Positions 4,956 to 20,248 of a stretch of 64,000 nucleotides of DNA are shown in pieces. Where the stretch lies: IMG/VR virus record IMGVR_UViG_3300037312_000412, positions 4,466 to 68,465 of that record, one strand, 5' to 3'. Position 1 is the first letter of the stretch; every line of letters starts with the position of its first letter. A program made the translations under genes and the position numbers. The notes beneath the pieces were generated by a model that searched no databases, was not told where the DNA came from, and saw only the letters and a program-made list of their open reading frames with translations. The DNA comes from a virus (taxonomy: Duplodnaviria > Caudoviricetes).

Positions 4956-6608
4956 ATGGCTGCCTCAGTCGGCGACCTGGTCGCCAATCTGAACGCGAAC
5001 ACGACCGGATTTACCAAGGGGCTCACGAAGGCCCGCGGTGAACTCTCCGGGTTTTCGTCGTTCGCAGCCAGCGCTCTGTCTGGAATCGCGATTGGCGGCG
5101 GAGTTGGGGCAGTCACCGCGCTGATTTCCGGACTAAAAAGTCTCGGGACATCCGCCTTCGGAACGGCGAAGGAGATGGTGGGACTCGCCGCAACCGCTGA
5201 ATCGAATCAGGTTGCGTTCTCGACGATGCTGGGATCCGCCGACAAGGCGAAGACCGTTCTGGCGCAGATCACCGACCTGGCTGCAAAGACCCCGCTCGAA
5301 ACGTCGGAACTGGTGAGCGCCGGACGCTCCCTCATCGCGTTCAAGCACTCCGCCGAAGAGGTTGTGCCGACGCTCCGCATGCTGGGCGACATCTCTTCGG
5401 GCGTGCAGCAGCCCATCGGTGAGATTGCCGAGATTTACGGCAAGGCTCGCGTGCAGGGTCGACTCTTCGCGGAGGACATCAACCAGTTCACCGGGCGCGG
5501 CATCCCGATTATTCAGGAACTCGCCAAGCAGTTCGGCGTTGGCGACGAAAAGGTCCGCAAGCTGGTTGAGGACGGCAAAGTCGGTTTCCCGCACCTGCAG
5601 AAAGCCTTCATGGCGCTGACCGCCGATGGCGGGAAGTTCCACGGGATGATGGAGGCGCAGTCGAAGACCCTCGCAGGGCTCTGGTCCACGGCGAAGGATA
5701 ACGTCGCCATCGCCATGAAGGGCATCGGCGAGACCATCGTCGAGTCGTTCGGGCTGAAAGACTTGCTCGCGGACTCCAACAGCTTCGCCGAGACATTCCA
5801 GAGCGAGTGGCTGCCGGCGATTCAGGGGACCGTCCAAGCGGCGGGAGAGGTGTTCCGCGGTGTCGTGGACGGGATGAAGGCGGCGTGGAATGGCTGGTTG
5901 GGAGAGACGTTTGAATTGCTGAAGTTCGGTGTTCAGAACTGGGACATCCTGTTCGACATCGCACTCGAACACTTCATTCTGTTTGTCCACAACATTCCCG
6001 AATACTTCTCGACAGCGATGACCAACGTCGTCGAAATCCTGTCGTGGATGGGAGAGAACTGGTTCGACATTCTCAAGACGATGTTGAGCGTTGAGGAAAC
6101 GGTACTCAAGAATCTCGCATCGAATGCCGTCGGCTATTTCAAGGAGATTTTCGACTACTACTACAGCCTTGGGGATGACCCGGTTGAGTTTCAGTTCAAA
6201 GGACTGACAGAGGGGTTCAAGAACTCCATCAAGGAACTGCCGAAGCTCACCGAGGCAAATTTGGCGACTACGACGCCGCGACTGGAATCTCTGTATTCGC
6301 AACTTGGATCGCGTGAAGCGGAGGCGAATAAAAAGGCAGTCGCGCAGGCCGCGGGGGTGGCAGCTCCAGGAGAATTGAAAGTCACCGACACCTTCAAAAC
6401 CGAAGGGAAAAAGCACAAGGATACTGTTGCCGCTGCGCTGCAGGGATCCAAAGAGGATCTATCCGCTGTTGCTGCTGCCGTCAACGGGACTCGCGGCAAG
6501 AATCCCCTTGAGAAGATCGGCAATCAGCAGCTTGGCGAACTGAAAGCCATCCATACCGAGATTGCAAAGGTCGGAAAAACGCCAGCGGTTGTGCGGAGGG
6601 GGCTCTAA
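4956..6608 (+). CDS. Tape measure protein (550 aa)
   Basis: N-terminal VGDLVANLNANTTGF; tape-measure domain TPLETSELV..GDISSG..GKARVQGRL.AEDINQF.GRGIPI. Confidence 0.95.
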   Translation: MAASVGDLVANLNANTTGFTKGLTKARGELSGFSSFAASALSGIAIGGGVGAVTALISGLKSLGTSAFGTAKEMVGLAATAESNQVAFSTMLGSADKAKTVLAQITDLAAKTPLETSELVSAGRSLIAFKHSAEEVVPTLRMLGDISSGVQQPIGEIAEIYGKARVQGRLFAEDINQFTGRGIPIIQELAKQFGVGDEKVRKLVEDGKVGFPHLQKAFMALTADGGKFHGMMEAQSKTLAGLWSTAKDNVAIAMKGIGETIVESFGLKDLLADSNSFAETFQSEWLPAIQGTVQAAGEVFRGVVDGMKAAWNGWLGETFELLKFGVQNWDILFDIALEHFILFVHNIPEYFSTAMTNVVEILSWMGENWFDILKTMLSVEETVLKNLASNAVGYFKEIFDYYYSLGDDPVEFQFKGLTEGFKNSIKELPKLTEANLATTTPRLESLYSQLGSREAEANKKAVAQAAGVAAPGELKVTDTFKTEGKKHKDTVAAALQGSKEDLSAVAAAVNGTRGKNPLEKIGNQQLGELKAIHTEIAKVGKTPAVVRRGL

Positions 6609-9191: not shown

Positions 9192-9655
9192 CTCCTGCCC
9201 AAGCCGCCGCCATCGCAGACCAAATCGAAGGCTGGATGTATCCGGACGAACTGCTCTGGATCGCACAGACCGCGGCCACTTGTCAGCGATGGCTGGAGAT
9301 CGGCGTGCATCGCGGTCGCAGCCTGACGGCCGCCGCGCTTGTGTGTCCGGAAGTCTACGGCGTGGATCCCGAGATGCCCGCGCACATCGAAGCTGACGCG
9401 ACGTTCTTGCGACTTCCAAGCCTCGCGGCCGTCACGCGATTCCCAGACGGCTACTTCGACGCGGTATTCATCGACGGGGATCACAGCTACGAGGGCGTGA
9501 AGGCCGACATTGCCGCGTGGCGACCGAAAACGAAAGGGCTGCTCTGCGGACATGACTATGGAAAGAGTGATTTGCCTGGCGTGACGCAGGCGGTGGATGA
9601 GGCGTTTGGCGTTCCCGAGCGTGGGTCCGGGAGCATTTGGTTTGTGAGGGTTTGA
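9188..9655 (+). CDS. Class I SAM-dependent methyltransferase (Methyltransf_24-like)
   Basis: LEIGVHRGRS and DAVFIDGDHSYEGVKADI..W.P..G.LCGHDY; ATGA overlap with the poly-Ser gene. Confidence 0.9.
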   Translation: MTPAQAAAIADQIEGWMYPDELLWIAQTAATCQRWLEIGVHRGRSLTAAALVCPEVYGVDPEMPAHIEADATFLRLPSLAAVTRFPDGYFDAVFIDGDHSYEGVKADIAAWRPKTKGLLCGHDYGKSDLPGVTQAVDEAFGVPERGSGSIWFVRV

Positions 9656-12561
9656 TGCACATTTTCATCGCCGGCTACGCCGGTCACTGCGGCGGAGCGG
9701 AAACCGAAACGCTGCATCTCTGTGATGCGTTTGTGAAAGCTGGCATCACTCCCCATCTGGTCCCGCTCGGCGAGCCGGATAAGGAGTGGCGAGAACAGAC
9801 CGACGCCATCGGCTGCATCACGCACAGATACTCGCCCGACATCTTCGCGGGGCAAGTCGTGCTTAATCTCTGCAACGGCGACCATCTGCGGAAGCTCCCA
9901 GAGATTTACGCCAACGGTCCACCGAAGGCGTACATTTTCGGGGACTGCATGGCGCGTCAGGTCTACGGGCAGGACGCACATCGCGCGGGACATATTACGC
10001 ACTTCCTGTTTCAGTCGCAGTACCAGCGGAATAATCACCTGCCAGAGTTGGAGAAAATCGCCCCGGTGACGGAGTTGACCGGCTACCGCCCGTATTTCTC
10101 GTGGCAACGGGGCACTGAGGATGGACTGTGGGCTCCCGGCTGTCCCTGCAACAAGCTAGATGGCACGTTCAACGTCGGGCGACTGTCGCGCGATGACTAC
10201 TACAAGTTCCCGGATGCGTTCTGGAAAAACTGGCAGGAGATCCGCGCAGAGAAGCCGGTCCATTTCTGGGTTCTGGGTTATGGGCAGAACGCCCGGAATC
10301 GCTGCGGCGAGCCCCCGAGCGGCGACACGTTCCACGTCTACCCCGCGTACGCGATGCCCGCGGCGGATTTCGTCTCCCGGCTCGATGTGCTGATCCATAC
10401 CACAGGCGGCAGCGGCGAGAACTGGCCGCGGGTGCTGTTCGAGGCGTGGGCAAGCGGCGTGGTGCCGATTTTCGAGCGCGACACAGGCGCATCGGAGATT
10501 ATCACCGACGGTGTTGACGGGTTTCTCGTCCGCTCTGGGGACGAAGCCGCAGAGCGTGCCTCGCAAATTGCACAGGATGACGCCCTACGCACACGGCTGG
10601 TCAAAGCCGGATATGAGACGCTACTCCGCGAGCACTGCAGCGTGGAACGCAGCGTGGGGCCGTTCCTGCCGTTGCTGGAGGGTTGCCCGGAGGTAACGGC
10701 GGACCCGATGCCGAAGCGTGGAACGCTCGATGTGTCCCGTATTCGCGCCATCAACGACTCTCAGAACGCGATTGTGCAGAAATCGACGCGGTTCATGGTG
10801 GCGCAGTGGCACATCGCGGACGGCAAGGTGCATCTCGACCGGCACACGCACGACTTCCCTAAAGAGGACATGGCGAGGGCGCTCGCGATGCTGTCGGCTG
10901 ACTTGGGGCAGCCCGCTCCCGCCCCTGAGAAACGAGACGGGCAAATCAAGAATCTCTGCATCTGCCACTGGGGCCACTCCCGCAGCGTCTGTCTCGCGCG
11001 TCTGCTCCACGGGAAGGGACAGGCGGCGGTTGCCATCGGGTTCGCCTCAAGCGGCGGCGCAATCGCCCCGCTGAGCGCATGGGCGGATCGGATCTTCGTC
11101 CTACAGGCGGATTATGCGAAGTATGTGCCTGCCGAGCATGCGGCAAAAGTCGTCGTGATGGATGTCGGACCCGATGTGTGGGCGAATCCGTACAACGCTG
11201 ATCTGCGGGCGAAGCTGGAGGGGATGTACGCGGCGTGGGAGCAGTCTCAGTTACCCCGCAAGCTCACCATCGCCTGCCAGACGTTCCCCGGAAGTCCCAT
11301 GCCGGAAGTCTGCCGCGAAACGTGGATCCCACGCGCCCGCGAACTCGGTATTGAGGTGCTGTTCTATTCTGGCGGAGGAGAAGGACAGGATGGCGATACC
11401 TGCTCCTTCCCTGTCCGCACCGACTATGGAGGCCACACTGAACGCACGAACGCACTGCTGCAGTGGTTCTCCCAGACGCATCCGAACACCTGGCTGTTTG
11501 ACGGCGACGACGACACGCTTGTGGCTCCCGAGCGTATGCTGGCGTACCTGGAGACCGCAGAGGAGTACTGCGGCTGGGACCTCGGCGCGTACGGCTCCGG
11601 CGGCGCGGGTGTGCTGCTCAGCCCGCGCGCCGTTCGGATTCTCGCGGACAATCCGCTCCCTGATCCGAGCGGATGGGATGACATCCAGATTGGCGAAGTG
11701 CTCCGAGCGCACGGAATCAACCTGACGCACGACGAACGCTTCCGCCCGTGGTGCAACAGCGACCCAAACGACGGCAACGAACCGGGACCGCAGAACGCCT
11801 ACATTACCGGACACTGCAAAACGCCCGCGCGAGATCCGTACCCGCACCGTATCGCTCTAATGCGGAAGGCGTGGGCGGATCTGACGAACCGTAAACTGAC
11901 GATTGGTGTGATGACCTTCCCTGGCAGTCCTCTCGCAAACGCCTGCCGAGAGACCTGGGTGCCTCGCGCGCGCGAGTTGGGCGTCGAAGTGCTGTTCTAC
12001 AGTGGCTCAAAGAAGCCCTGCTGCGGTCAACCGTGGGAGACGAGACAGGAAGGCGACTTGCTCCAGTTCGCGGCCGAGCCCGACTACGCGCACAGTTGCG
12101 ACCGAATGGAGGCGTTCGCTCAATGGATGTCGCAGAATCGTCCCGGCCATTGGCTGCTGGGCGTGGATGATGACACGCTCGTTTTGCCTGATCGACTCTT
12201 GGCGATGCTGCCGAGCGTGGGCGAATACGTCGGCTGGGGCTGCGATGCCAATCACCGGATCGGACACGGCGGCGCGGGCTACATTCTCTCGCCGCAGGCT
12301 GTTGCGCTCATCGCGGAAAAGGGGCTCCCGCCGACAGGGCATCACGACATCGAAATCGGCAATGTGATGTACGACAGTGGCGTGGTGTTCACGCACGATA
12401 CGCGGTTTCGCCCGCATCGTAATTCGGTGCCTGGGGACGATAACGAGCCGACGCGAAAGAACGGATACGTGACGTGTCACTGCAAGTCGGGGGCAATTGG
12501 AGATGATCCGCACGCCGACAGAATCAGGCTGATGCGGCGGATCTGGGCGGAGGTGGCGTGA
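9655..12561 (+). CDS. Multidomain glycosyltransferase: GT-B (GT4-like) + CX5R phosphatase-like + two Fringe/GT31-like domains
   Basis: GGAETE; ENWPRVLFEAWASGV.PI..ITDGVDGFLV; CHWGHSRS at 10963-10986; tandem RKLTI..TFPGSP..CRETW.PRARELG repeats at 11257 and 11890, each with DDDT and GGAG..LS. Confidence 0.85.
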   Translation: MHIFIAGYAGHCGGAETETLHLCDAFVKAGITPHLVPLGEPDKEWREQTDAIGCITHRYSPDIFAGQVVLNLCNGDHLRKLPEIYANGPPKAYIFGDCMARQVYGQDAHRAGHITHFLFQSQYQRNNHLPELEKIAPVTELTGYRPYFSWQRGTEDGLWAPGCPCNKLDGTFNVGRLSRDDYYKFPDAFWKNWQEIRAEKPVHFWVLGYGQNARNRCGEPPSGDTFHVYPAYAMPAADFVSRLDVLIHTTGGSGENWPRVLFEAWASGVVPIFERDTGASEIITDGVDGFLVRSGDEAAERASQIAQDDALRTRLVKAGYETLLREHCSVERSVGPFLPLLEGCPEVTADPMPKRGTLDVSRIRAINDSQNAIVQKSTRFMVAQWHIADGKVHLDRHTHDFPKEDMARALAMLSADLGQPAPAPEKRDGQIKNLCICHWGHSRSVCLARLLHGKGQAAVAIGFASSGGAIAPLSAWADRIFVLQADYAKYVPAEHAAKVVVMDVGPDVWANPYNADLRAKLEGMYAAWEQSQLPRKLTIACQTFPGSPMPEVCRETWIPRARELGIEVLFYSGGGEGQDGDTCSFPVRTDYGGHTERTNALLQWFSQTHPNTWLFDGDDDTLVAPERMLAYLETAEEYCGWDLGAYGSGGAGVLLSPRAVRILADNPLPDPSGWDDIQIGEVLRAHGINLTHDERFRPWCNSDPNDGNEPGPQNAYITGHCKTPARDPYPHRIALMRKAWADLTNRKLTIGVMTFPGSPLANACRETWVPRARELGVEVLFYSGSKKPCCGQPWETRQEGDLLQFAAEPDYAHSCDRMEAFAQWMSQNRPGHWLLGVDDDTLVLPDRLLAMLPSVGEYVGWGCDANHRIGHGGAGYILSPQAVALIAEKGLPPTGHHDIEIGNVMYDSGVVFTHDTRFRPHRNSVPGDDNEPTRKNGYVTCHCKSGAIGDDPHADRIRLMRRIWAEVA

Positions 12562-13829
12562 TGGGACGCGGGCGCGGGAGATGCTGCTGCGGTTGCGCTA
12601 TCGACTATTACGACTTGATCGTATTCGGAGGTGCCTACAAGTCGAATTCGGACGGCACGTTCAGCGCTGCTGCTGGGTTTATGCCGCCGACTGGAATCGA
12701 CTTTGACGACGATGGACCGAATGGCGGCGACTATCGCAACGACGACAACTTCTTTCTGATCCGCAGGCCCACGAAATACTTGCTACCCTCGTACTACGGC
12801 ACATTTCAGCTCTATCAGGCCTGTTCGAGCGCTCCGACGTTCATCAACTCGCCTCAGCAACCGACAGGCGTTGGCGGCCTCGGTTTCGTGCCTGGGGTCG
12901 GCGCGTTCTCGCAGGGACCGATCGGGTACATCTGCAATTACACCTACGAGACAAACACTTCGAACGTCTACTCGGTGTCGTCTTCGGGCTGCACGATGAT
13001 CGCTCAGATGCCGTCGAGCACGGGCTACCCGATGTGCTGGAGCGGTGACGATTTCATGGCGGTCTGCCCACCGTCAGGTTCGCTCACTGGTGGCAGCGCG
13101 ACATCAACCGACAACATCGCGTACACATTCGACGGATCGACCTTCACAGCCCAGACAACTGGCAGTATTCCGTTGCCCGCAGACAGCGGCGGCGGCTACG
13201 CATCGATCTACAGAATCTTCGGTCCGTACAGTAGCAGTATAAGCCAGATCGGCGGATCTGGAGGGGGGATCTTTGCCTGGAACGGGAGCACGCTCGGGTT
13301 TTGGCTCCTGGCCTCGGGGACAGGCGGCGGTGCAGACGGCTTCGTGACGATGCAGAGAACCGGAAACGACCTATCGGCAGGGACAGCTTTCGCGCTGACT
13401 GTGGCGAACGACAGTATCGCATCGGATTCTCTCGCGGACTCCGCCGGAGCATTTGCGATCAGTCCAGACGGGAGCATTATTGCATTTTCTGCGAGTTCAT
13501 CGGATGCAGGCACCTTCAATCCGCTTTATCCGCCTCGCGATGGCGGCGGCAGGAGTCGCCGCAATCGAATCCACATCTACAAAAACGGCACCCTCACCGC
13601 AAACGTTCTGCCGGCGAACGCGATCAGCGATTCTCTGATCTACCAGATGAGCATCAGCGACGACGGAAAGGCGCTTGTCGCCTGTTCTGAAACAGCCAGC
13701 GGGAGCATTCCGAACCCCGGAAATACCACCACCTACAAAATCAACAGCGACGGCAGCCTGACGCAGTTGGATCAGAAGGGGCCGGGGCGAGTCGCGTTCT
13801 TTTCTCACCAGTACCGCTGCCCGGTGTGA
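12558..13829 (+). CDS. Putative receptor-binding tail protein (beta-propeller-like) with an N-terminal CCCGC motif
   Basis: GTGA overlap; AISPDGSIIAF and MSISDDGKALV blade motifs; Gly/Ser-rich. Confidence 0.6.
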   Translation: MMGRGRGRCCCGCAIDYYDLIVFGGAYKSNSDGTFSAAAGFMPPTGIDFDDDGPNGGDYRNDDNFFLIRRPTKYLLPSYYGTFQLYQACSSAPTFINSPQQPTGVGGLGFVPGVGAFSQGPIGYICNYTYETNTSNVYSVSSSGCTMIAQMPSSTGYPMCWSGDDFMAVCPPSGSLTGGSATSTDNIAYTFDGSTFTAQTTGSIPLPADSGGGYASIYRIFGPYSSSISQIGGSGGGIFAWNGSTLGFWLLASGTGGGADGFVTMQRTGNDLSAGTAFALTVANDSIASDSLADSAGAFAISPDGSIIAFSASSSDAGTFNPLYPPRDGGGRSRRNRIHIYKNGTLTANVLPANAISDSLIYQMSISDDGKALVACSETASGSIPNPGNTTTYKINSDGSLTQLDQKGPGRVAFFSHQYRCPV

Positions 13830-14080
13830 CGATGGATCTGCCGCCATTCAGAACCCGGATCGTCAACTTTTTTAGGACATTCGTCGCGCACGTCGGGAAC
13901 GACATGCGGATCGTGCCTCAAGAGAAGTTGGAGGAGCGGCTTTCCATCTGCGAGACAAACGCTTGCGGCCACTTCACGGGAACGCACTGCGCTCAATGCG
14001 GATGCCCAGCGAACAGCGAAAGCGTGTTCTTCAACAAGGTCGCGTGGGAGTCCAGCAAGTGCCCTGATGGCCGCTGGTGA
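13826..14080 (+). CDS. Small Cys-rich protein ending the tail operon
   Basis: RLSIC...C......CAQCGC........K......CPDGRW pattern. Confidence 0.7.
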   Translation: MTMDLPPFRTRIVNFFRTFVAHVGNDMRIVPQEKLEERLSICETNACGHFTGTHCAQCGCPANSESVFFNKVAWESSKCPDGRW

Positions 14081-14081
14081 C

Positions 14082-15719
14082 TCACTCGACGAAGCTGTGA
14101 AGGATCGTCAGATCTCGCATCGACTGCGTCGGCACGTCGTAGTACCGGATATGAATGGCTATCGCCTTCATGTCGTGCCAGTCGTCAGAGCCGGGCCAGC
14201 CCGCTTCTCCTGCGTCGTCGATGCCGTTGATCTTGTCGTCATCGATCCCAGCAACCCCTGGCTGACCATCAATTCCGGTGTCGAAGTTTCGGAACGGGGC
14301 CACATCCACCGAGGCGTCAGCGGTCCATGTGTCGTAGACGTTTTTGTTGTAGCCCGCGGCGGTGTTCGGGTTGTTGTTGCCATAGTTCACGCTCTGGGAC
14401 GTGAGATACTTCGAGGCGTTCGTGCCGCCAATGTCCACGAACATCCCGGTCATCCCTGTGATCGGGTTGGTGGCCCAGTCGTCCCAAACCTTGATGTCGA
14501 ACTCGTGGACGTTCGTCGCCAGCAGATCGTGAGAGACGCGAGTCCCGTTGAATTGATTGCCGTTGATCGTGGCGAAGCCGTTGGCGTTGACGGCAGTCGT
14601 CGAGGCGGTCAATGGGCAGGTGTCGTCTCCGGTGTAATAAACGCCATCCGGTCCGTATCCCGGAGAGCCCGGCCAACTGAATCCAGGGTCGCTCGTCTCC
14701 ATCTGCGTGAAGCGGCCGATGTAGCTCTGATCGGCGGTATACTCCATTGAGTGCGGAATCACACTGGATGTTCCGGGCGCGAAGCCCCAGCGATTCTGCG
14801 GCTGCCCCATGCTCATCGGTCGGCCGTTGAAGTTATCGAGAGCGCCGCTCTGAACACCCACAAACCGGAGTCCGCCGCTCCATGTCGCCGAATAGTCGAA
14901 GTCACCCCAAAAACTCGCATTAGCGAAGCCGAAGCCATTCGACAGCGGGTTATCCGTGTTCGATGGGGACGACGGGTTCCAGATCATGCCGGCGGTGTAA
15001 ACCGTCGCGTTGGGGATCAACGCCGTTCCATCTGGCCGAAGCGGCTGGTCGTCGGATTTCGTGCCATCAATCGGCTGCCGGATCAGCATCTGTCGGCGGT
15101 AGAGATTGCCGTTCCGAAGGAAGTAGGCGATCTCGGCGTAGCCCGATGTTCCGGTCTGGTCCGAGGTGAGAGCGCCGGTTGAATACCGCCCGGCCTGATC
15201 GTCGAACACCGGCTGATCCGGATTGTGCTGCAACAGGTCGCGGGCGCTGGTGTCGTTTGGCGGGGAAAATGGACCGTTGTCGGAGCCGAACTGGAGCGCG
15301 CGTCCGTAGAATGTCGGCGTTTCGAAATTGTTCGAGGCGTTACTCGCGTCAACCGTAAACTGGATCATGTCATCGATCTGGTCGTTCGGGTTGTTCTCGG
15401 CGATATAGACGTAGCCGCGGGCGTACGATGCCATCAACGGGGACTTGCTTGGGGTCTTGTCGCTCGACGCGAGTGCCCGAATTCCGAACTCGCCGTGAAT
15501 CTGCCGGTAGCTGCGGCTGCTCAGATCTCCCCGGATCAGGATGTTGAGCATGCGGGCTTTCTGGTCGTTCTCCGCGACGCCCTTCATCTTCGACATGCTC
15601 TTGGTGGCAATCGAAAACACTTCTCCGAACATCGCCAACATCAGGCAGACGAGGGCAACGGCGACGAGCATTTCGACCAGGGTGAAGCCCGAACGGCGAT
15701 TTGGGGCGTGTTTCTTCAC
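14082..15719 (-). CDS. Prepilin-type N-terminal cleavage/methylation protein (type IV minor pilin/GspJ-like), 545 aa
   Basis: GTG start after AGGAG; MKKHAPNRRSG|FTLVEMLVAVALV class III signal; EIAYFLRNGNLYRRQMLIR; DGQPGVAGIDDD..GIDD acidic loop; C-terminal RDLTILHSF. Confidence 0.92.
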   Translation of the reverse strand: MKKHAPNRRSGFTLVEMLVAVALVCLMLAMFGEVFSIATKSMSKMKGVAENDQKARMLNILIRGDLSSRSYRQIHGEFGIRALASSDKTPSKSPLMASYARGYVYIAENNPNDQIDDMIQFTVDASNASNNFETPTFYGRALQFGSDNGPFSPPNDTSARDLLQHNPDQPVFDDQAGRYSTGALTSDQTGTSGYAEIAYFLRNGNLYRRQMLIRQPIDGTKSDDQPLRPDGTALIPNATVYTAGMIWNPSSPSNTDNPLSNGFGFANASFWGDFDYSATWSGGLRFVGVQSGALDNFNGRPMSMGQPQNRWGFAPGTSSVIPHSMEYTADQSYIGRFTQMETSDPGFSWPGSPGYGPDGVYYTGDDTCPLTASTTAVNANGFATINGNQFNGTRVSHDLLATNVHEFDIKVWDDWATNPITGMTGMFVDIGGTNASKYLTSQSVNYGNNNPNTAAGYNKNVYDTWTADASVDVAPFRNFDTGIDGQPGVAGIDDDKINGIDDAGEAGWPGSDDWHDMKAIAIHIRYYDVPTQSMRDLTILHSFVE

Positions 15720-16027
15720 GGCGAATCTCCTACTTGGATCCCAGCCCGTCTGCTGTAAGTCCCAACCTGCGTCCCGCCCATCATCAACCGGATTTCCCCA
15801 TCGCCAGCGGCTGCCCGCAACTCTGGCTCGATTCGGTGGAAGTCGCTCGCCCAAACGCTCAGAGAGCCAGTATCGGTGAAGTTCTGAACGTGCCCGGTTG
15901 CTGCAGCTCGCTCCAGCGCCGACAGGTCGCGCGGACTGGTATCGGCTCGCGGCTTCATGGCAACCCAGATCGCAGCCACGATACAGGTCATCACCGCCAG
16001 AATCGAGACGACGGCGCGGCTACTCAC
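15716..16027 (-). CDS. Small membrane-anchored protein coupled to the pilin gene
   Basis: N-terminal hydrophobic segment; GTGA overlap with the pilin start. Confidence 0.7.
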   Translation of the reverse strand: MSSRAVVSILAVMTCIVAAIWVAMKPRADTSPRDLSALERAAATGHVQNFTDTGSLSVWASDFHRIEPELRAAAGDGEIRLMMGGTQVGTYSRRAGIQVGDSP

Positions 16028-16184
16028 GGCTCAGATCCTCAAGCATCTCCACGAGCGCCCCCTTGAGAGCGGACCGCTCTTCGAAGGGAAGCTCTTTGCT
16101 CCGGATGACCTTGAGATACCGGCGGACCACGCCCTTCAACGTCAACAGTTCCTGCTCGACTGATTCCATCAGCACTGCCGTCAT
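16020..16184 (-). CDS. Small helical hypothetical protein
   Basis: MTAVLMESVEQ...; 8-nt overlap with the next gene. Confidence 0.55.
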   Translation of the reverse strand: MTAVLMESVEQELLTLKGVVRRYLKVIRSKELPFEERSALKGALVEMLEDLSRE

Positions 16185-16380
16185 GATTTCGACCCCACGA
16201 AACACCGAAACCCGCGCATCCTGGGGCAAGCAGAAATGCCGGGCCGGTGCCGGACGAAACGTCCGTGTTTCAGTATTTCCTGCCCGCCTTGCCCGCGGGC
16301 ACTGTTCAGCGTACCGAGATTCAGCAACGAGTGCCAATATTGGCTGGATCAACCAGTTACGAAAACGTAACAAAACCCAG

Positions 16381-16408
16381 TTGACATGCGTTCAGTACCG
16401 CGTATAGT
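16381..16408 (+). promoter_or_regulatory. Sigma70-like promoter TTGACA-N16-TATAGT
   Basis: Near-consensus hexamers read directly from the sequence. Confidence 0.7.
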
Positions 16409-16534
16409 AAGCCCATCGCACGAACGCGCCACGTCCCATTGACGGGATTCCGCCATTGTCAGCCAGAGTGCTGCCACGCCACACGCGGGTGTATCCGGGT
16501 GTCCACGAGCAGGTAGAGGCGAGATGTCTCCCTG

Positions 16535-16723
16535 TCACACCCTTGGCGGCTTCCCGCGCCCCCGTACCTCGCTGAGCTGCCGTTTCGAACCGCGCCGTTT
16601 CAGGAGCTGTAGGTATCCAGCGCGGATCAGGTCTGCTTCGGTCTCGCCGGGCTTGAGGTGTGCGGCGATTTCCTCGCGGTGGTCGTCGGGGATTACGAGG
16701 CGGATGCTCGGGGTGATGGGCAT
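16535..16723 (-). CDS. Ribbon-helix-helix-like DNA-binding protein with a basic RGKPP tail (paralogue A)
   Basis: AAGGAG RBS; SIRLVIP..LKPGETEADLIRAG..LKRRG. Confidence 0.75.
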   Translation of the reverse strand: MPITPSIRLVIPDDHREEIAAHLKPGETEADLIRAGYLQLLKRRGSKRQLSEVRGRGKPPRV

Positions 16724-16724
16724 G

Positions 16725-17096
16725 CTAGACTCCTTCGGCATCGCGGGCTTGCAACACCTCTTTCGGTTCCGCGAGCAGTTGGGCGCGAATCGCTTCGATA
16801 GTGTCGCGATTGGCCTCACCGCAATGGTCCGCCAAGATGTCGAGCATTCGGGCACGTTCGAAGACACGAGCTTCAAAATGCGGGTCGGCAGCGCAAATCT
16901 CGTCGCGGCTATCGCGCTGCAGCATGACGATTTGACCGTCCCGCGAGACGACACGCAGGCGAGGCAGTTTGCCGACTCCGTGAAACAGGATGAACCAATC
17001 GAACCCCAAGGATTCGACGGACTGGTTGACCATGTTTTGCCAGTAGGCCACCTGTGTCTGGTTGTCGCCGTCGCTGAGTTTCCACTGCATTTTCAA
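16725..17096 (-). CDS. Hypothetical protein
   Basis: GGAG RBS; downstream of the leftward promoter. Confidence 0.7.
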   Translation of the reverse strand: MKMQWKLSDGDNQTQVAYWQNMVNQSVESLGFDWFILFHGVGKLPRLRVVSRDGQIVMLQRDSRDEICAADPHFEARVFERARMLDILADHCGEANRDTIEAIRAQLLAEPKEVLQARDAEGV

Positions 17097-17143
17097 TCTC
17101 CCGGTTTGATTCCCGCAGGTCTCAGTTGCCCGCGTCTGGGTTT

Positions 17144-17171
17144 ATTATACACACAATATCGGCACCGTCAA
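17144..17171 (-). promoter_or_regulatory. Leftward promoter TTGACG-N16-TATAAT
   Basis: Consensus -10 on the minus strand; palindrome AATTATG-GA-CATAATT at 17175-17190 lies just upstream. Confidence 0.8.
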
Positions 17172-17283
17172 TGGAATTATGGACATAATTTCTGAAAACA
17201 CCAACCCCCGCGGGCGTATCGTCCCTCTGGCGAGTCTCCCGGTACGCTCGCGGGGTGTTTCCTAAAATCGCATACATTTTCTG

Positions 17284-17311
17284 TTGACGTGCCGTTAATG
17301 GTATGTACAAT
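17284..17311 (+). promoter_or_regulatory. Rightward promoter TTGACG-N16-TACAAT
   Basis: Near consensus; about 50 nt before the ORF at 17364. Confidence 0.8.
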
Positions 17312-17363
17312 ACGCTCCGACGCAGGCAACTGAGACCTGCGAACCGCAAACCGAGGGGTCAAC

Positions 17364-17741
17364 ATGAGCGAAGTTCGGATGAACGCCAAGGTCGGAGAGA
17401 TCGTAATCCGCTGGCACAAAGAGGATGAGGGCGTGGACTACCGCGCCATCGTTGATGCGGTTTCCGCCGCCTTGAAAGAGGTCTGCGAGCCACGAATCGT
17501 CGATGAGGAATCGGAAGTCGAGTACAAGGGCTGGAAGATTCGCAGGGTGCCGGGAAGTGAATTCAAGGGGCTGCGAGGTCGCACCAAGGATTGCTACGGC
17601 TGGATCGCGACTCACATCGAGACTGGGCATGAAGTGTCGTTCCCACCCGAGAGCGGCGATGACTGCCGGATGCGAATCGTGGAGCTTCAACTCGACACGG
17701 CGAACGAAGCTTACGAGACGCTTGGGAGGTTCCTGCGATGA
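17364..17741 (+). CDS. Hypothetical protein
   Basis: GAGG RBS; first gene after the promoter. Confidence 0.7.
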   Translation: MSEVRMNAKVGEIVIRWHKEDEGVDYRAIVDAVSAALKEVCEPRIVDEESEVEYKGWKIRRVPGSEFKGLRGRTKDCYGWIATHIETGHEVSFPPESGDDCRMRIVELQLDTANEAYETLGRFLR

Positions 17742-17959
17742 GGTACGTTGTCAGAATCAACGGCTCCAGATTCGTCACGGTCGAGGCCTTCGACGAAGCG
17801 GAAGAGGCGGCGAAGCAACTTGCGGAGTCAGCAGCGCCTCGCGACGTAATCACGGCCGACATTGCCCTTGAGGACGCAGGTCGTGGAGATCCGACGAACT
17901 GGAGATTTGAAGGCGGTCGCCTCGCGGCAACACGACGACGCGGAGATAGGATTCACTGA
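17738..17959 (+). CDS. Hypothetical protein
   Basis: ATGA coupling. Confidence 0.65.
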   Translation: MRYVVRINGSRFVTVEAFDEAEEAAKQLAESAAPRDVITADIALEDAGRGDPTNWRFEGGRLAATRRRGDRIH

Positions 17960-17961
17960 AC

Positions 17962-18171
17962 ATGAGCAAGCGCCGAGAATCCATCGTCCTGCCGCCGGAA
18001 TGGCTGGCGGCAGCGACCGCCGCCCTGAAAGACGGCGAGACCATCGCAGACCTGATCCGCGCCGGGATGAAGCGCGAACTCAAGCGCCGTGGCGTAGACG
18101 TGGCTGCCCTGCCGGACGTGGGAAAGAGGGGGAGACCACCTAAGGGCAACGGCAACATCTCGGCAGGATAA
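17962..18171 (+). CDS. Ribbon-helix-helix-like DNA-binding protein with an RGRP tail (paralogue B)
   Basis: ESIVLP..LKDGETIADLIRAG..LKRRG..KRGRPP; clear similarity to 16535-16723. Confidence 0.78.
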   Translation: MSKRRESIVLPPEWLAAATAALKDGETIADLIRAGMKRELKRRGVDVAALPDVGKRGRPPKGNGNISAG

Positions 18172-18436
18172 CGGCAGGTTGCATAAACCAGAGCGAATAT
18201 GTCGGAGGTTTTTCACCGCACCTAGGGAATTTCCCCATTGCGTAGTGGGAACTCGTCTTGAAGTCGGAACGGGAGTGAGTGAGTTTTGATACTGGCCATC
18301 CGGGAAGATGGTTAGTTGCTGTAGCGGATGCGACCCGCGGCGGTCGCCTGGATGCTCTCGCCCAGTTTTAACAGCAAGCCTCGCGATTGGAGCGAACCGG
18401 GGCACGAGAGCGGAATCGGAAGCGGAGGCTGCAAAG

Positions 18437-18646: not shown

Positions 18647-20248
18647 ATGAAGCCTGCAGCGATGTACCTGCGGATGTCTTCCGCCAAGCAGGACACGTCG
18701 ATTCCGGACCAGCGAAAGGCGGTCAAGGAATACGCCAAAAAGAACGGATTCAAGCTGGTCGCGGAGTACGCCGACCACGCCATCAGCGGTGACGATACCG
18801 AACGTCGCATTGAGTTCCAGCGGATGATTGCCGACGCTGTCTCCGGCAAGTTCAAGTTCATCCTGTGCTGGGACGCGAGCCGGTTCGGCCGCTTCGATTT
18901 GATCGAGGGCGGCTACTGGATCCGCCCATTGCGAGACGCCGGTATCACGCTGGTCACGCTGGACCGCGGCGAGATCTCATGGAACGACTTCGCCAGCCGG
19001 ATTATCTGGAGCGTCGAAACGGAAGGGCGACACGCCTATTTGCGAGACCTTGCCCGCAATGTGATGCGCGGCAAACTCGCAGCGGCGCAGCAGGGAATCT
19101 GGACCGGAAAACCGCCATTCGGTTACAGGCTCGTGGATAAGCGACTCGCCGTCCACGATGAAGAAGCATCGATCGTGCGGCAGATCTTCGCGGACTACCT
19201 CGCAGGCACGGGACTATTCTCGCTTGCCAATGACCTGCAGATCCGCGGCGTTCGGACTTCTAAAGGCGGAATCTGGGGACGCACGAGTCTGGCGCGGTTG
19301 CTGAGAAACACAGCCTACATCGGGATATACCGCTGGAATCACCGCTCGACTGCGAAATACATCCAGGTGACCGGCGGCGTGTGCTCTGAGGTGACGAGCA
19401 AAGGACGGACGATCTACCACTCGGAAGAGGACTGGGTCACCATTGAAGACGCCCACCCCCCGCTCGTGGAGCGCGACGTGTTCGATGCGGTTCAGCGAGA
19501 GTTGAAGGTGCGGCAGCGATGCACAACGCCGGGTGCCTCGAAGCGGTTTTTGCTAACCGGACTGCTGGTGTGCGGGCACTGCGGAGCGCCGATGCACGGA
19601 CGGGAGAACAAGCGCAGCGGCGTGATTCGTTACACCTGCGGAGCCTACCTACGCGGTGTGCACGATCACGCCAACACCGTTGGGCAGGACGAAGTGCTCG
19701 CTGCGATCATCGAGCAAGTCAACCAAAGATACTGCACTGCCCGTGGAATTGCGGCTCTCCGCAAACGCGCCGAGAAGGCGCGAGCGCGGCTGGAATCGCA
19801 TGACGATCAAGCCGACGTCGCCCGAAAGATCGACGCTATCGACGCGAAGCTCGCCAAGGCAAAGCGCCGGCTCGTCGAGGTGGACTCAGACCTTGTGGGC
19901 GTGGTCCAGGATCACATCCGGGAACTGCAGCAGAGCCGCGAGCATCTGGAGTCCCAACTGCCCACGAAGCCCATCAAGCCGACCGACATTGATGTCGGAA
20001 TCGACGAGGTCGTTCAGAGCTATCGCAAGATCGTCGAGACACTGATGCGAAGAAACCCCGCCGACGTAAAGCGTTGGCTGCGGAAGATTGTTCATTTCGC
20101 CACTGTGACCGCGGTCAAGAGACAGGCTGGCAGTCGATCGTTCCACGATTTCGATTCCTGCGACGTGAATCTGCATCCCGCGAGCGCAGTGTTGTCCACT
20201 CCGTCTGAACAAACGGAACAAGTCTGCGCATTGCTGCGGCGAGCCTAA
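18647..20248 (+). CDS. Large serine recombinase (integrase)
   Basis: YLRMSS catalytic Ser, SIPDQ, D.AISG..R.EFQRM, SRFGR, G.W.GKPPFGY, zinc ribbon LLTGLLVCGHCGAPM, coiled coil. Confidence 0.96.
   Translation: MKPAAMYLRMSSAKQDTSIPDQRKAVKEYAKKNGFKLVAEYADHAISGDDTERRIEFQRMIADAVSGKFKFILCWDASRFGRFDLIEGGYWIRPLRDAGITLVTLDRGEISWNDFASRIIWSVETEGRHAYLRDLARNVMRGKLAAAQQGIWTGKPPFGYRLVDKRLAVHDEEASIVRQIFADYLAGTGLFSLANDLQIRGVRTSKGGIWGRTSLARLLRNTAYIGIYRWNHRSTAKYIQVTGGVCSEVTSKGRTIYHSEEDWVTIEDAHPPLVERDVFDAVQRELKVRQRCTTPGASKRFLLTGLLVCGHCGAPMHGRENKRSGVIRYTCGAYLRGVHDHANTVGQDEVLAAIIEQVNQRYCTARGIAALRKRAEKARARLESHDDQADVARKIDAIDAKLAKAKRRLVEVDSDLVGVVQDHIRELQQSREHLESQLPTKPIKPTDIDVGIDEVVQSYRKIVETLMRRNPADVKRWLRKIVHFATVTAVKRQAGSRSFHDFDSCDVNLHPASAVLSTPSEQTEQVCALLRRA

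Follow-up and report, generated by a model that had tools for sequence, protein, structure and literature searches.

A host-derived type IV minor pilin encoded beside the tail genes of a temperate phage of Planctomycetaceae

We analysed a 64,000-nucleotide stretch of viral DNA (hereafter the window), which makes up bases 4466-68465 of the Caudoviricetes record IMGVR_UViG_3300037312_000412, and found that it encodes an intact, host-derived type IV pilus subunit. The pilin is a genuine gene of a complete temperate phage of Planctomycetaceae, and it is a displaced copy of one minor pilin of a host pilus operon, not a resident member of such an operon. Phages have acquired this subunit repeatedly as an accessory gene, which is the pattern expected of a conflict gene and not of a structural necessity. 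The evidence leans slightly towards the view that the protein acts as a substitute pilus-tip subunit which would exclude pilus-binding phages, as does P-FimU, a phage-borne minor pilin of Pseudomonas aeruginosa. Phage-encoded pilins were thus already known (PMC12952977); what is new here is the GspJ/PilW class of the protein, its size, the phylum in which it occurs, its predicted partner and its conserved leader.

An intact pilin gene of host origin

The minus strand of window positions 14082-16184 consists of three translationally coupled genes, which encode proteins of 54, 103 and 545 amino acids. From the last gene to the first they are as follows.

14082-15719, minus strand: the 545-amino-acid phage-borne minor pilin, with PF07963 and TIGR02532 matches above cut-off
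15716-16027, minus strand: a 103-amino-acid orphan membrane protein with an N-terminal transmembrane helix and a small alpha/beta domain
16020-16184, minus strand: the first gene of the operon, encoding a 54-amino-acid protein that is helical as judged from its sequence

The pilin open reading frame (ORF) extends over 14082-15854, and its likely start is the GTG at 15719-15717, which lies 8 nt past an AGGAG. The stop codon of the 103-amino-acid gene overlaps this start in the sequence GTGA, and the stop codon of the 54-amino-acid gene overlaps the GTG start of the 103-amino-acid gene by 8 nt. The encoded pilin opens with a short, basic leader, after which come G/FTLVEMLVAVALVCLML (G/FTLVEMLVAV) and a hydrophobic stretch, and thus has the leader glycine, the phenylalanine at +1, the glutamate at +5 and the hydrophobic stretch of approximately 20 residues that mark a type IV pilin. 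The profiles PF07963 (N_methyl; 28.9 bits, cut-off 21.2) and TIGR02532 (23.1 bits, cut-off 16.3) both recognized it. Its C-terminus reaches the end of all the homologues in the alignment, showing that the protein is complete. An earlier note on this stretch had described a complete 545-amino-acid pilin with a G/FTLVE signal, a ribosome-binding site and a full C-terminus, coupled to two small upstream genes, and the ORF, the AGGAG, the homologue alignments and the two stop/start overlaps all agree with that description. The pilin stop codon (14084-14082) faces the end, at 14080, of a convergent gene for an 84-amino-acid protein, leaving one base between them; the spacing of 1 nt from the last tail gene had therefore been noted correctly, and the label of tail gene reflects position only. 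Nearly all genes of the window are encoded by the plus strand; the pilin operon ranks among the few minus-strand units.

The whole virus record is 68,465 bp long, carries direct terminal repeats and was rated 100% complete by CheckV. The pilin gene lies approximately 18 kb from the end of this genome, and the base composition shows no step at its locus. Terminase, portal, head-tail adaptor and DnaB-type helicase genes are present, together with the two genes below, of which the integrase bounds, on the lysogeny side, the slot occupied by the pilin operon and has a counterpart of 62% identity in syntenic position in the related contig L001.

4956-6608: tape measure gene, identified by domain and PHROG matches
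18647-20248, plus strand: large serine integrase with Resolvase, Recombinase and Zn_ribbon_recom domains (phrog_95, E 2.6e-96)

Two independent assemblies have the same layout. L001, a 59-kb Logan contig from SRR26838002, carries the tape measure, tail genes, a glycosyltransferase fusion, a 418-amino-acid gene, a convergent three-gene pilin operon and the serine integrase, and L011, a 3.6-kb contig from JGI 3300060805, carries genes for 55- and 102-amino-acid proteins and the pilin, followed by a convergent gene. Given a complete, terminally repeated genome and the recurrence of the arrangement in L001 and L011, the locus is neither a misassembly nor a prophage edge, and the concern of the earlier note that 14082-16400 might be host chromosome joined in error, or a prophage boundary, can be set aside.

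A homologue search with the pilin returned 332 proteins, nearly all from Planctomycetaceae (e.g. Gimesia, Planctomicrobium and Schlesneria), which were full-length at 30-38% identity; the best ones in host context had E-values of 1e-82 at 98-100% coverage. Of 398 Planctomycetaceae genomes, 303 have a match to this family, mostly with one match listed per genome, and some of the genomes with two matches represented split alignments. In the hosts, the order of genes is a PilB-like ATPase (with T2SSE and MshEN domains), a T2SSF platform protein, four pilin-like genes of approximately 315, 345, 450 and 440-457 amino acids, the homologue itself as the fifth pilin-like gene (approximately 540 amino acids), and a giant ORF of 1500-2100 amino acids without any Pfam domain; pilins of the DUF1559 type often follow downstream. 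The giant ORF lies directly 3' of the homologue in most host-genome loci examined, and several of the loci without an adjoining giant ORF end at a contig edge. Its product is a candidate pilus-tip adhesin or phage receptor. Examples in host loci are the following.

L003, 9694-14430: giant ORF
L004, 9765-14813: giant ORF
L006, 11809-16470: giant ORF

In L006, a gene for a PilT-sized ATPase is located just upstream of the pilus operon. Together with the MshEN-containing PilB-like ATPase, this indicates that the host operon looks like one for a type IV pilus and not for type II secretion. The phage copy has none of this context, being flanked by the gene for the 103-amino-acid orphan and by the convergent 84-amino-acid gene.

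Of the 71 columns with a conservation of at least 90% among 43 host-context sequences, the phage pilin keeps 68, with Gly-1, Phe+1 and Glu+5 among them; the 44 invariant columns of alignment A1 are all present in it by construction. Its differences fall in segments that are also variable among the hosts, and variable loops account for most of the difference between phage and host copies. Judged by this conservation, the pilin has been kept functional. The phage genome encodes no A24 prepilin peptidase, no T2SSE assembly ATPase and no second pilin, and A24 peptidases were found in all five Planctomycetaceae genomes tested. Thus the pilin depends on the machinery of the host, in line with the earlier view that it needs a host prepilin peptidase.

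A scan of viral contigs with the single pilin sequence returned nothing, and an alignment-based scan of IMG/VR identified four further viral contigs with a pilin homologue at 31-35% identity (L007-L010). L007 and L009 have tape measures of other families and tyrosine integrases, and their pilin gene lies between the tail module and the integrase. In L008 and L010, the pilin gene directly follows a homologue of the 84-amino-acid cysteine-rich gene, on the same strand and after the tail-end genes. In a 50-sequence maximum-likelihood tree, phage pilins fell in at least three places among the host copies. The window pilin grouped with P0004, L011 and L001 at 100% SH-aLRT support, P0004 being its nearest relative (58% identity by BLASTP and 66% over the tree columns). 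A single clade of all phage pilins was rejected by the approximately unbiased (AU) test (p-AU 0.007), for which the group was defined by genomic context and which was run after the tree had been seen. Prophages with a related tape measure (up to 43% identity) were detected in 22 of the 398 Planctomycetaceae genomes, and the five examined carry the host pilin only, showing that the phage pilin is accessory. Taken together, the full-length homology to a Planctomycetaceae pilus-operon gene, the tree, the same slot in L001 and L011, and the presence of the gene in at least three phage lineages bear out the suggestion that it was captured from a host.

Fold, predicted partner and leader

An AlphaFold2 (AF2) model of the pilin had a predicted TM-score of 0.75 and a mean predicted local distance difference test score (pLDDT) of 68.5. 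It comprises a 54-residue helix (residues 14-67), a beta-sheet core and long, poorly predicted insertions, and hence has the long N-terminal helix and globular beta-sheet domain of a pilin. Comparison of the model using VIA-align 2 gave four clear matches, namely TTHA1219 (Z 9.5), XcpW (Z 9.3), EpsJ (Z 8.9) and GspJ (Z 8.6), with 138-149 residues aligned at root-mean-square deviations of 3.6-4.0 A (149 residues at 3.6 A for TTHA1219); the next match had a Z-score of 4.5. A Foldseek search of the PDB with the model found no match at E <=0.001, and a profile search of PDB sequences matched the pilin N-terminal helix only, at E 0.12 or worse.

The pseudopilins GspJ, XcpW and EpsJ and the type IV-like pilin TTHA1219 of Thermus thermophilus, the only clear structural matches, share with the phage protein a class III signal peptide with Glu+5. 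In type IV filaments, those of type II secretion as well as type IVa pili, the tip or priming complex is built by proteins of the GspJ/PilW class; the GspJ-class pseudopilins form it together with GspI and GspK. The phage pilin is approximately three times larger than these pseudopilins, however, and its sequence similarity to them is confined to the N-terminal helix. Going by the model, it is GspJ/PilW-like in fold; by sequence, it is not classed as a GspJ orthologue. Three family assignments were considered and rejected. The GspJ profile TIGR01711 gave 13 bits against a cut-off of 64.85, over N-terminal residues only. As a FimU homologue, the pilin scored only 16.5 bits with TIGR01708 (gspH), over the N-terminal motif, and its fold is of the GspJ class. 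As Verru_Chthon cassette protein C, which is the database name of its relative P0018, it scored 17.8 bits with TIGR02599 against a cut-off of 256.5, over residues 11-57.

Homologues of the 103-amino-acid protein were found only in the window phage, L011 (78% identity) and L001 (47%). No relative beyond this group was returned by a word search of 5.8 billion proteins or by a full HMMER scan of 1.84 billion representatives. Its AF2 model had a pLDDT of 76.7, and no fold match exceeded a Z-score of 4.6; the idea that it is a degenerate GspI-like pilin found no support. Prediction of its complex with the pilin gave an ipSAE of 0.63 (0.63, 0.66 and 0.50 in the individual runs) compared with 0.00 for the best control; 58 of 80 solved complexes and 2 of 110 mismatched pairs attained the mark applied, counts that apply only approximately because our own alignments were used. 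The partner had a pLDDT of at least 75 in the complex, and at least 67% of the contacts were common to the runs. Partner residues 36-57 are predicted to touch the conserved C-terminal strands of the pilin (518-545), residues 412-427 and helix residues 52-63. The 103-amino-acid protein is thus predicted to bind the pilin, which the model supports and does not prove. In this model, its docking site is probably the conserved pilin core, and by docking there it would help the pilin to enter, or to compete for, the host complex.

The 54-amino-acid protein, with weakly conserved counterparts of 55 amino acids in L011 and 41 amino acids in L001, had no family match in Pfam, PHROG or NCBIfam, and PHROGs contained no family for any of the three operon products. 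Directly upstream of its gene lies a non-coding segment.

16185-16345, minus strand: putatively structured non-coding leader with three to four hairpins, the last of which pairs with the start-codon region

This leader of approximately 160 nt is as conserved as coding sequence in all three phages (window, L001 and L011), with 71-73% DNA identity to L001 and L011 and with insertions and deletions that are not multiples of three. RNAalifold proposed 45 base pairs, four of which have changes on both sides, from three sequences only, and this is suggestive at best of a structured RNA. No Rfam family matched the leader. A search of viral and metagenome contigs for its invariant 16-mer, CGGTGTTTCGTGGGGT, returned 126 loci, all of them chance matches without similarity to the leader or the operon. 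In five of these contigs (L096, L148, L091, L127 and L210), a gene for a distant serine recombinase lies at or beside the match; no link to the leader was established, and the 16-mer may fall within coding sequence there.

A proposed substitute tip pilin and other readings

P-FimU is a FimU-like minor pilin encoded within the tail cluster of prophages of F10-like siphophages in Pseudomonas aeruginosa (Sztanko et al., Cell Rep 2026; PMC12952977). According to that report, P-FimU is expressed from the prophage, enters the pilus without loss of function and blocks tip-binding phages, and a variable tail-tip protein sets the sensitivity to it. The same report describes P-PilA, a set of major-pilin homologues in Xylella fastidiosa prophages and several lytic phages, and puts forward truncated PilA-like proteins of 60 residues as candidate blockers (PMC12952977). 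P-FimU and the window pilin have much in common: each belongs to a temperate siphophage, is a diverged host minor pilin encoded in or beside a tail cluster with a variable tail-tip protein nearby, and relies on the assembly machine of the host, and for each the proposed replacement of a tip subunit would block tip-binding phages. P-PilA likewise is a phage-borne pilus subunit without assembly genes, presumed to change or mask the receptor, and the window pilin too is a pilus-subunit homologue that stands beside a tail cluster without assembly genes of its own. The differences are also clear. Whereas P-FimU is small and of the GspH class, with approximately 130 residues aligned to its host counterpart at 28% identity, the window pilin is a 545-amino-acid protein of the GspJ/PilW class with large insertions, comes from a different pilus operon and a different phylum, and has a predicted orphan membrane partner and a conserved leader. 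P-FimU is known by functional assay, and the window pilin from sequence and models.

By analogy, the lysogen would produce the pilin, as might an infected cell at a late stage; the protein would enter the inner membrane and be cut by the host prepilin peptidase. The host machine would then build it into the pilus tip complex instead of the host copy. As its variable exposed loops would be unlike those of the host, phages whose distal tail protein recognizes the host tip would fail to adsorb, and these may include the window phage itself and its relatives. The outcome would be superinfection exclusion by receptor substitution, as with P-FimU.

The two genes at the end of the tail module are of interest in this respect.

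12558-13829, plus strand: 423-amino-acid protein, the last large gene of the tail module and a hypervariable candidate receptor-binding protein
13826-14080, plus strand: 84-amino-acid cysteine-rich protein, convergent with the pilin gene (phrog_13558, E 9.5e-8)

The 423-amino-acid protein had no family in Pfam, PHROG or NCBIfam, and the only match of the 84-amino-acid protein was phrog_13558, a family of unknown function; for both, a tail role is suggested by position. The 84-amino-acid protein is 35% identical (E 1e-14) to the product of L008 9466-9729, just upstream of the L008 pilin gene, and its homologue adjoins the pilin gene in the distant contig L010 as well. The 423-amino-acid protein gave no tblastn match in L001 and only 31% identity in L011, compared with 57-74% for the flanking genes, and in pairwise BLASTP the alignment was limited to an N-terminal MM..GRG..CCCG motif. 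A conserved N-terminus joined to an unrelated body is typical of receptor-binding proteins, and the 423-amino-acid protein is, on this pattern, a likely receptor-binding protein matched to the pilin. Between the window and L001, identity was 74% for the tape measure, 66-70% for tail proteins, 65-68% for the glycosyltransferase fusion, 62% for the integrase and 57-58% for the pilin. Such a gradient of divergence, with identity lowest in the pilin and the distal tail gene, fits an arms race.

The earlier note had proposed exclusion by a substitute tip pilin, and the tip-class fold, the hypervariable tail neighbour and the precedent of P-FimU (PMC12952977) lend that proposal qualified support. 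Several points weigh against it. It supposes that phages of these hosts, perhaps including the window phage, use pili as their receptor. The pilin is accessory and not essential to phages of this type, as the five prophage-bearing genomes with only a host copy illustrate, and its nearest relative, P0004, lies on a 3.2-kb contig (3176 bp) of ERZ1758400 whose gene order looks host-like. A search through tape-measure relatives in the 398 Planctomycetaceae genomes, of which the best are 43% identical, and through integrase relatives, of which the best are 40-42% identical, found no integrated copy or att site of the window phage and no host of its lineage. The structural model of the pilin is of middling confidence (pLDDT 68.5), and a partner placed over the conserved core could, on the same model, equally hold the pilin back and block assembly.

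The last point leads to a rival account. Phages commonly encode proteins that shut down type IV pili. Tip of D3112, Aqs1 of DMS3, Zip, and PfsE of Pf are small non-pilin proteins which bind to PilB, PilZ or PilC and bring the assembly of pili to a halt; as is proposed for the pilin, they protect the infected or lysogenic cell from pilus-dependent phages, but they are not pilus subunits. The 103- and 54-amino-acid proteins match none of the four, having no family matches. The pilin might nevertheless have a comparable effect as a dominant-negative decoy: held by the 103-amino-acid protein, it would engage the minor-pilin/platform complex of the host without being able to prime, and the lysogen would lose its pili. 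Exclusion would result as with Tip, Aqs1, Zip and PfsE, but at the cost of pilus function. We regard this as rather unlikely, although the frequency of phage-encoded pilus inhibitors speaks for it, as does the partner, an orphan that has a transmembrane anchor but lacks a pilin motif and is predicted to cover part of helix alpha-1 (its C-terminal half, 52-63), residues 412-427 and the conserved C-terminal strands (518-545), that is, the core used for pilin packing. Against a decoy, the pilin has kept its full length and 68 of the 71 host-conserved columns, more than a plug would need when compared with the 60-residue PilA-like blockers (PMC12952977); in L007, L008 and L009 the pilin occurs with no counterpart of the 103-amino-acid protein; and P-FimU leaves pilus function intact (PMC12952977). 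A different proposal, lysogenic conversion to the benefit of the host, would have the pilin alter adhesion by the tip or the giant protein, surface attachment or aggregation, with no primary role in exclusion. The position of the host copies directly upstream of the giant ORF, a possible tip-associated adhesin, in most loci examined fits such a role, as does the concentration of phage-host differences in the variable loops. We consider it improbable, since the pilin is found repeatedly beside tail-end genes and near a hypervariable distal tail protein, a placement that suggests conflict over a phage receptor, and since exclusion is the sole function known to have been demonstrated for a phage minor pilin (PMC12952977).

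Very little weight can be given to the two other accounts. The slot between tail genes and integrase is where attP often sits, and the gene could on that ground be a replacement copy that compensates for integration into its host counterpart, or else a passenger recently captured from a host and without a role of its own. The link to the integration target, which the earlier note had also entertained, is unlikely, since the pilin occurs in phages with a serine integrase (window and L001) as well as in phages with a tyrosine integrase (L007 and L009). Moreover, the gene is complete, with its own start, operon partners and a conserved leader; the phage copies are only 57-58% identical yet keep the conserved columns, indicating long retention under selection; and in the five related-prophage genomes the host pilin is on another contig or far away. 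It is just as improbable that the pilin is a component of the virion or of the infection cycle, made late with the tail genes and placed in the tail tip or acting at entry or release. In L007, L008 and L010, the gene does come immediately after the tail genes and shares their strand. An intact class III signal peptide, however, directs the protein into the membrane and not to the cytoplasm, where tails assemble; the operons of the window, L001 and L011 run on the opposite strand and have an upstream region of their own; and P-FimU is likewise encoded inside a tail cluster and yet expressed from the prophage (PMC12952977).

Beyond exclusion by a substitute tip pilin, the observations allow a bolder, and doubtful, combined interpretation in which a two-part module that re-tips the pilus, a new kind of control by an RNA leader and a linked receptor/anti-receptor cassette would all hold together. 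The orphan-fold 103-amino-acid protein would dock on the pilin core and deliver or prioritize the pilin in the host priming complex, and the pilin and the hypervariable tail protein would travel as a cassette that Planctomycetaceae phages have assembled independently. Were this so, the pilus tip complex, including the giant protein, would be the main phage receptor in Planctomycetaceae. The phage biology of the Planctomycetes is nearly unexplored, and here at least three unrelated temperate lineages have captured the same pilus subunit, which suggests that the tip complex is a major receptor in this family. Receptor substitution, so far shown only for FimU in Pseudomonas, would be extended to another pilin class, another operon and another phylum, suggesting that the strategy is general. 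The giant ORF of the host operon gains a candidate role as a tip-associated receptor or adhesin, and both the predicted orphan partner and the conserved leader add concrete points that can be tested.

Other tail-module proteins and regulatory elements near the operon

A tri-cysteine motif near the N-terminus is common to distal tail proteins of four divergent phages, the bodies of which are unrelated, and it may be an attachment or acylation site. The segment or genes that carry it are as follows.

Window, 12558-12600: CCCG, in the 423-amino-acid protein
L001, 11652-12908, minus strand: CCCG
L008, 7872-8834: CCCA
L010, 8414-9472: CCCS

One gene away from the pilin operon, the tail module encodes a 974-amino-acid fusion (9637-12561, plus strand) of a GT-B glycosyltransferase with two Fringe/GT31-like repeats. 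Its counterpart in L001 (65-68% identity) has 1071 amino acids and also contains hexapeptide-repeat domains. The fusion could serve in the glycosylation of virion proteins or in modification of the host surface. In L007, a 319-amino-acid tail-module protein (5404-6363) has an N-terminal domain resembling head-decoration proteins (phrog_122, E 8.7e-12).

Scanning of 16185-16540 for sigma-70-type elements detected no promoter on the operon strand. One candidate of another type lies further upstream.

16461-16476, minus strand: sigma-54-type -24/-12 candidate, TGGCAG-N5-TGGCT, approximately 280 nt upstream of the operon

This element is identical in L001 except for one spacer base. The pattern, with two mismatches to the consensus, is not rarer than chance (23 found in the window against 33 expected), and the candidate is a weak lead. 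A near-consensus sigma-70-type promoter at 16381-16408 (plus strand; TTGACA-16-TATAGT) points away from the pilin operon. It belongs to a block shared with L001, and in that phage it would be directed at the integrase-side genes, from which an inserted island separates it in the window.

The island (16521-18160) has a 'mirror-image' arrangement and is an insertion relative to L001, in which matches to window 16370-16521 and to window 18160-18181 (22 nt, 100% identical) abut at position 9322. It contains divergent TTGACG-N16 promoters at 17171-17144 (minus strand) and 17284-17311 (plus strand), a 75-nt inverted repeat, and paralogous genes for ribbon-helix-helix-like proteins at approximately 16535-16740 (minus strand) and 17962-18171 (plus strand), and may be a mobile or swappable regulatory cassette.

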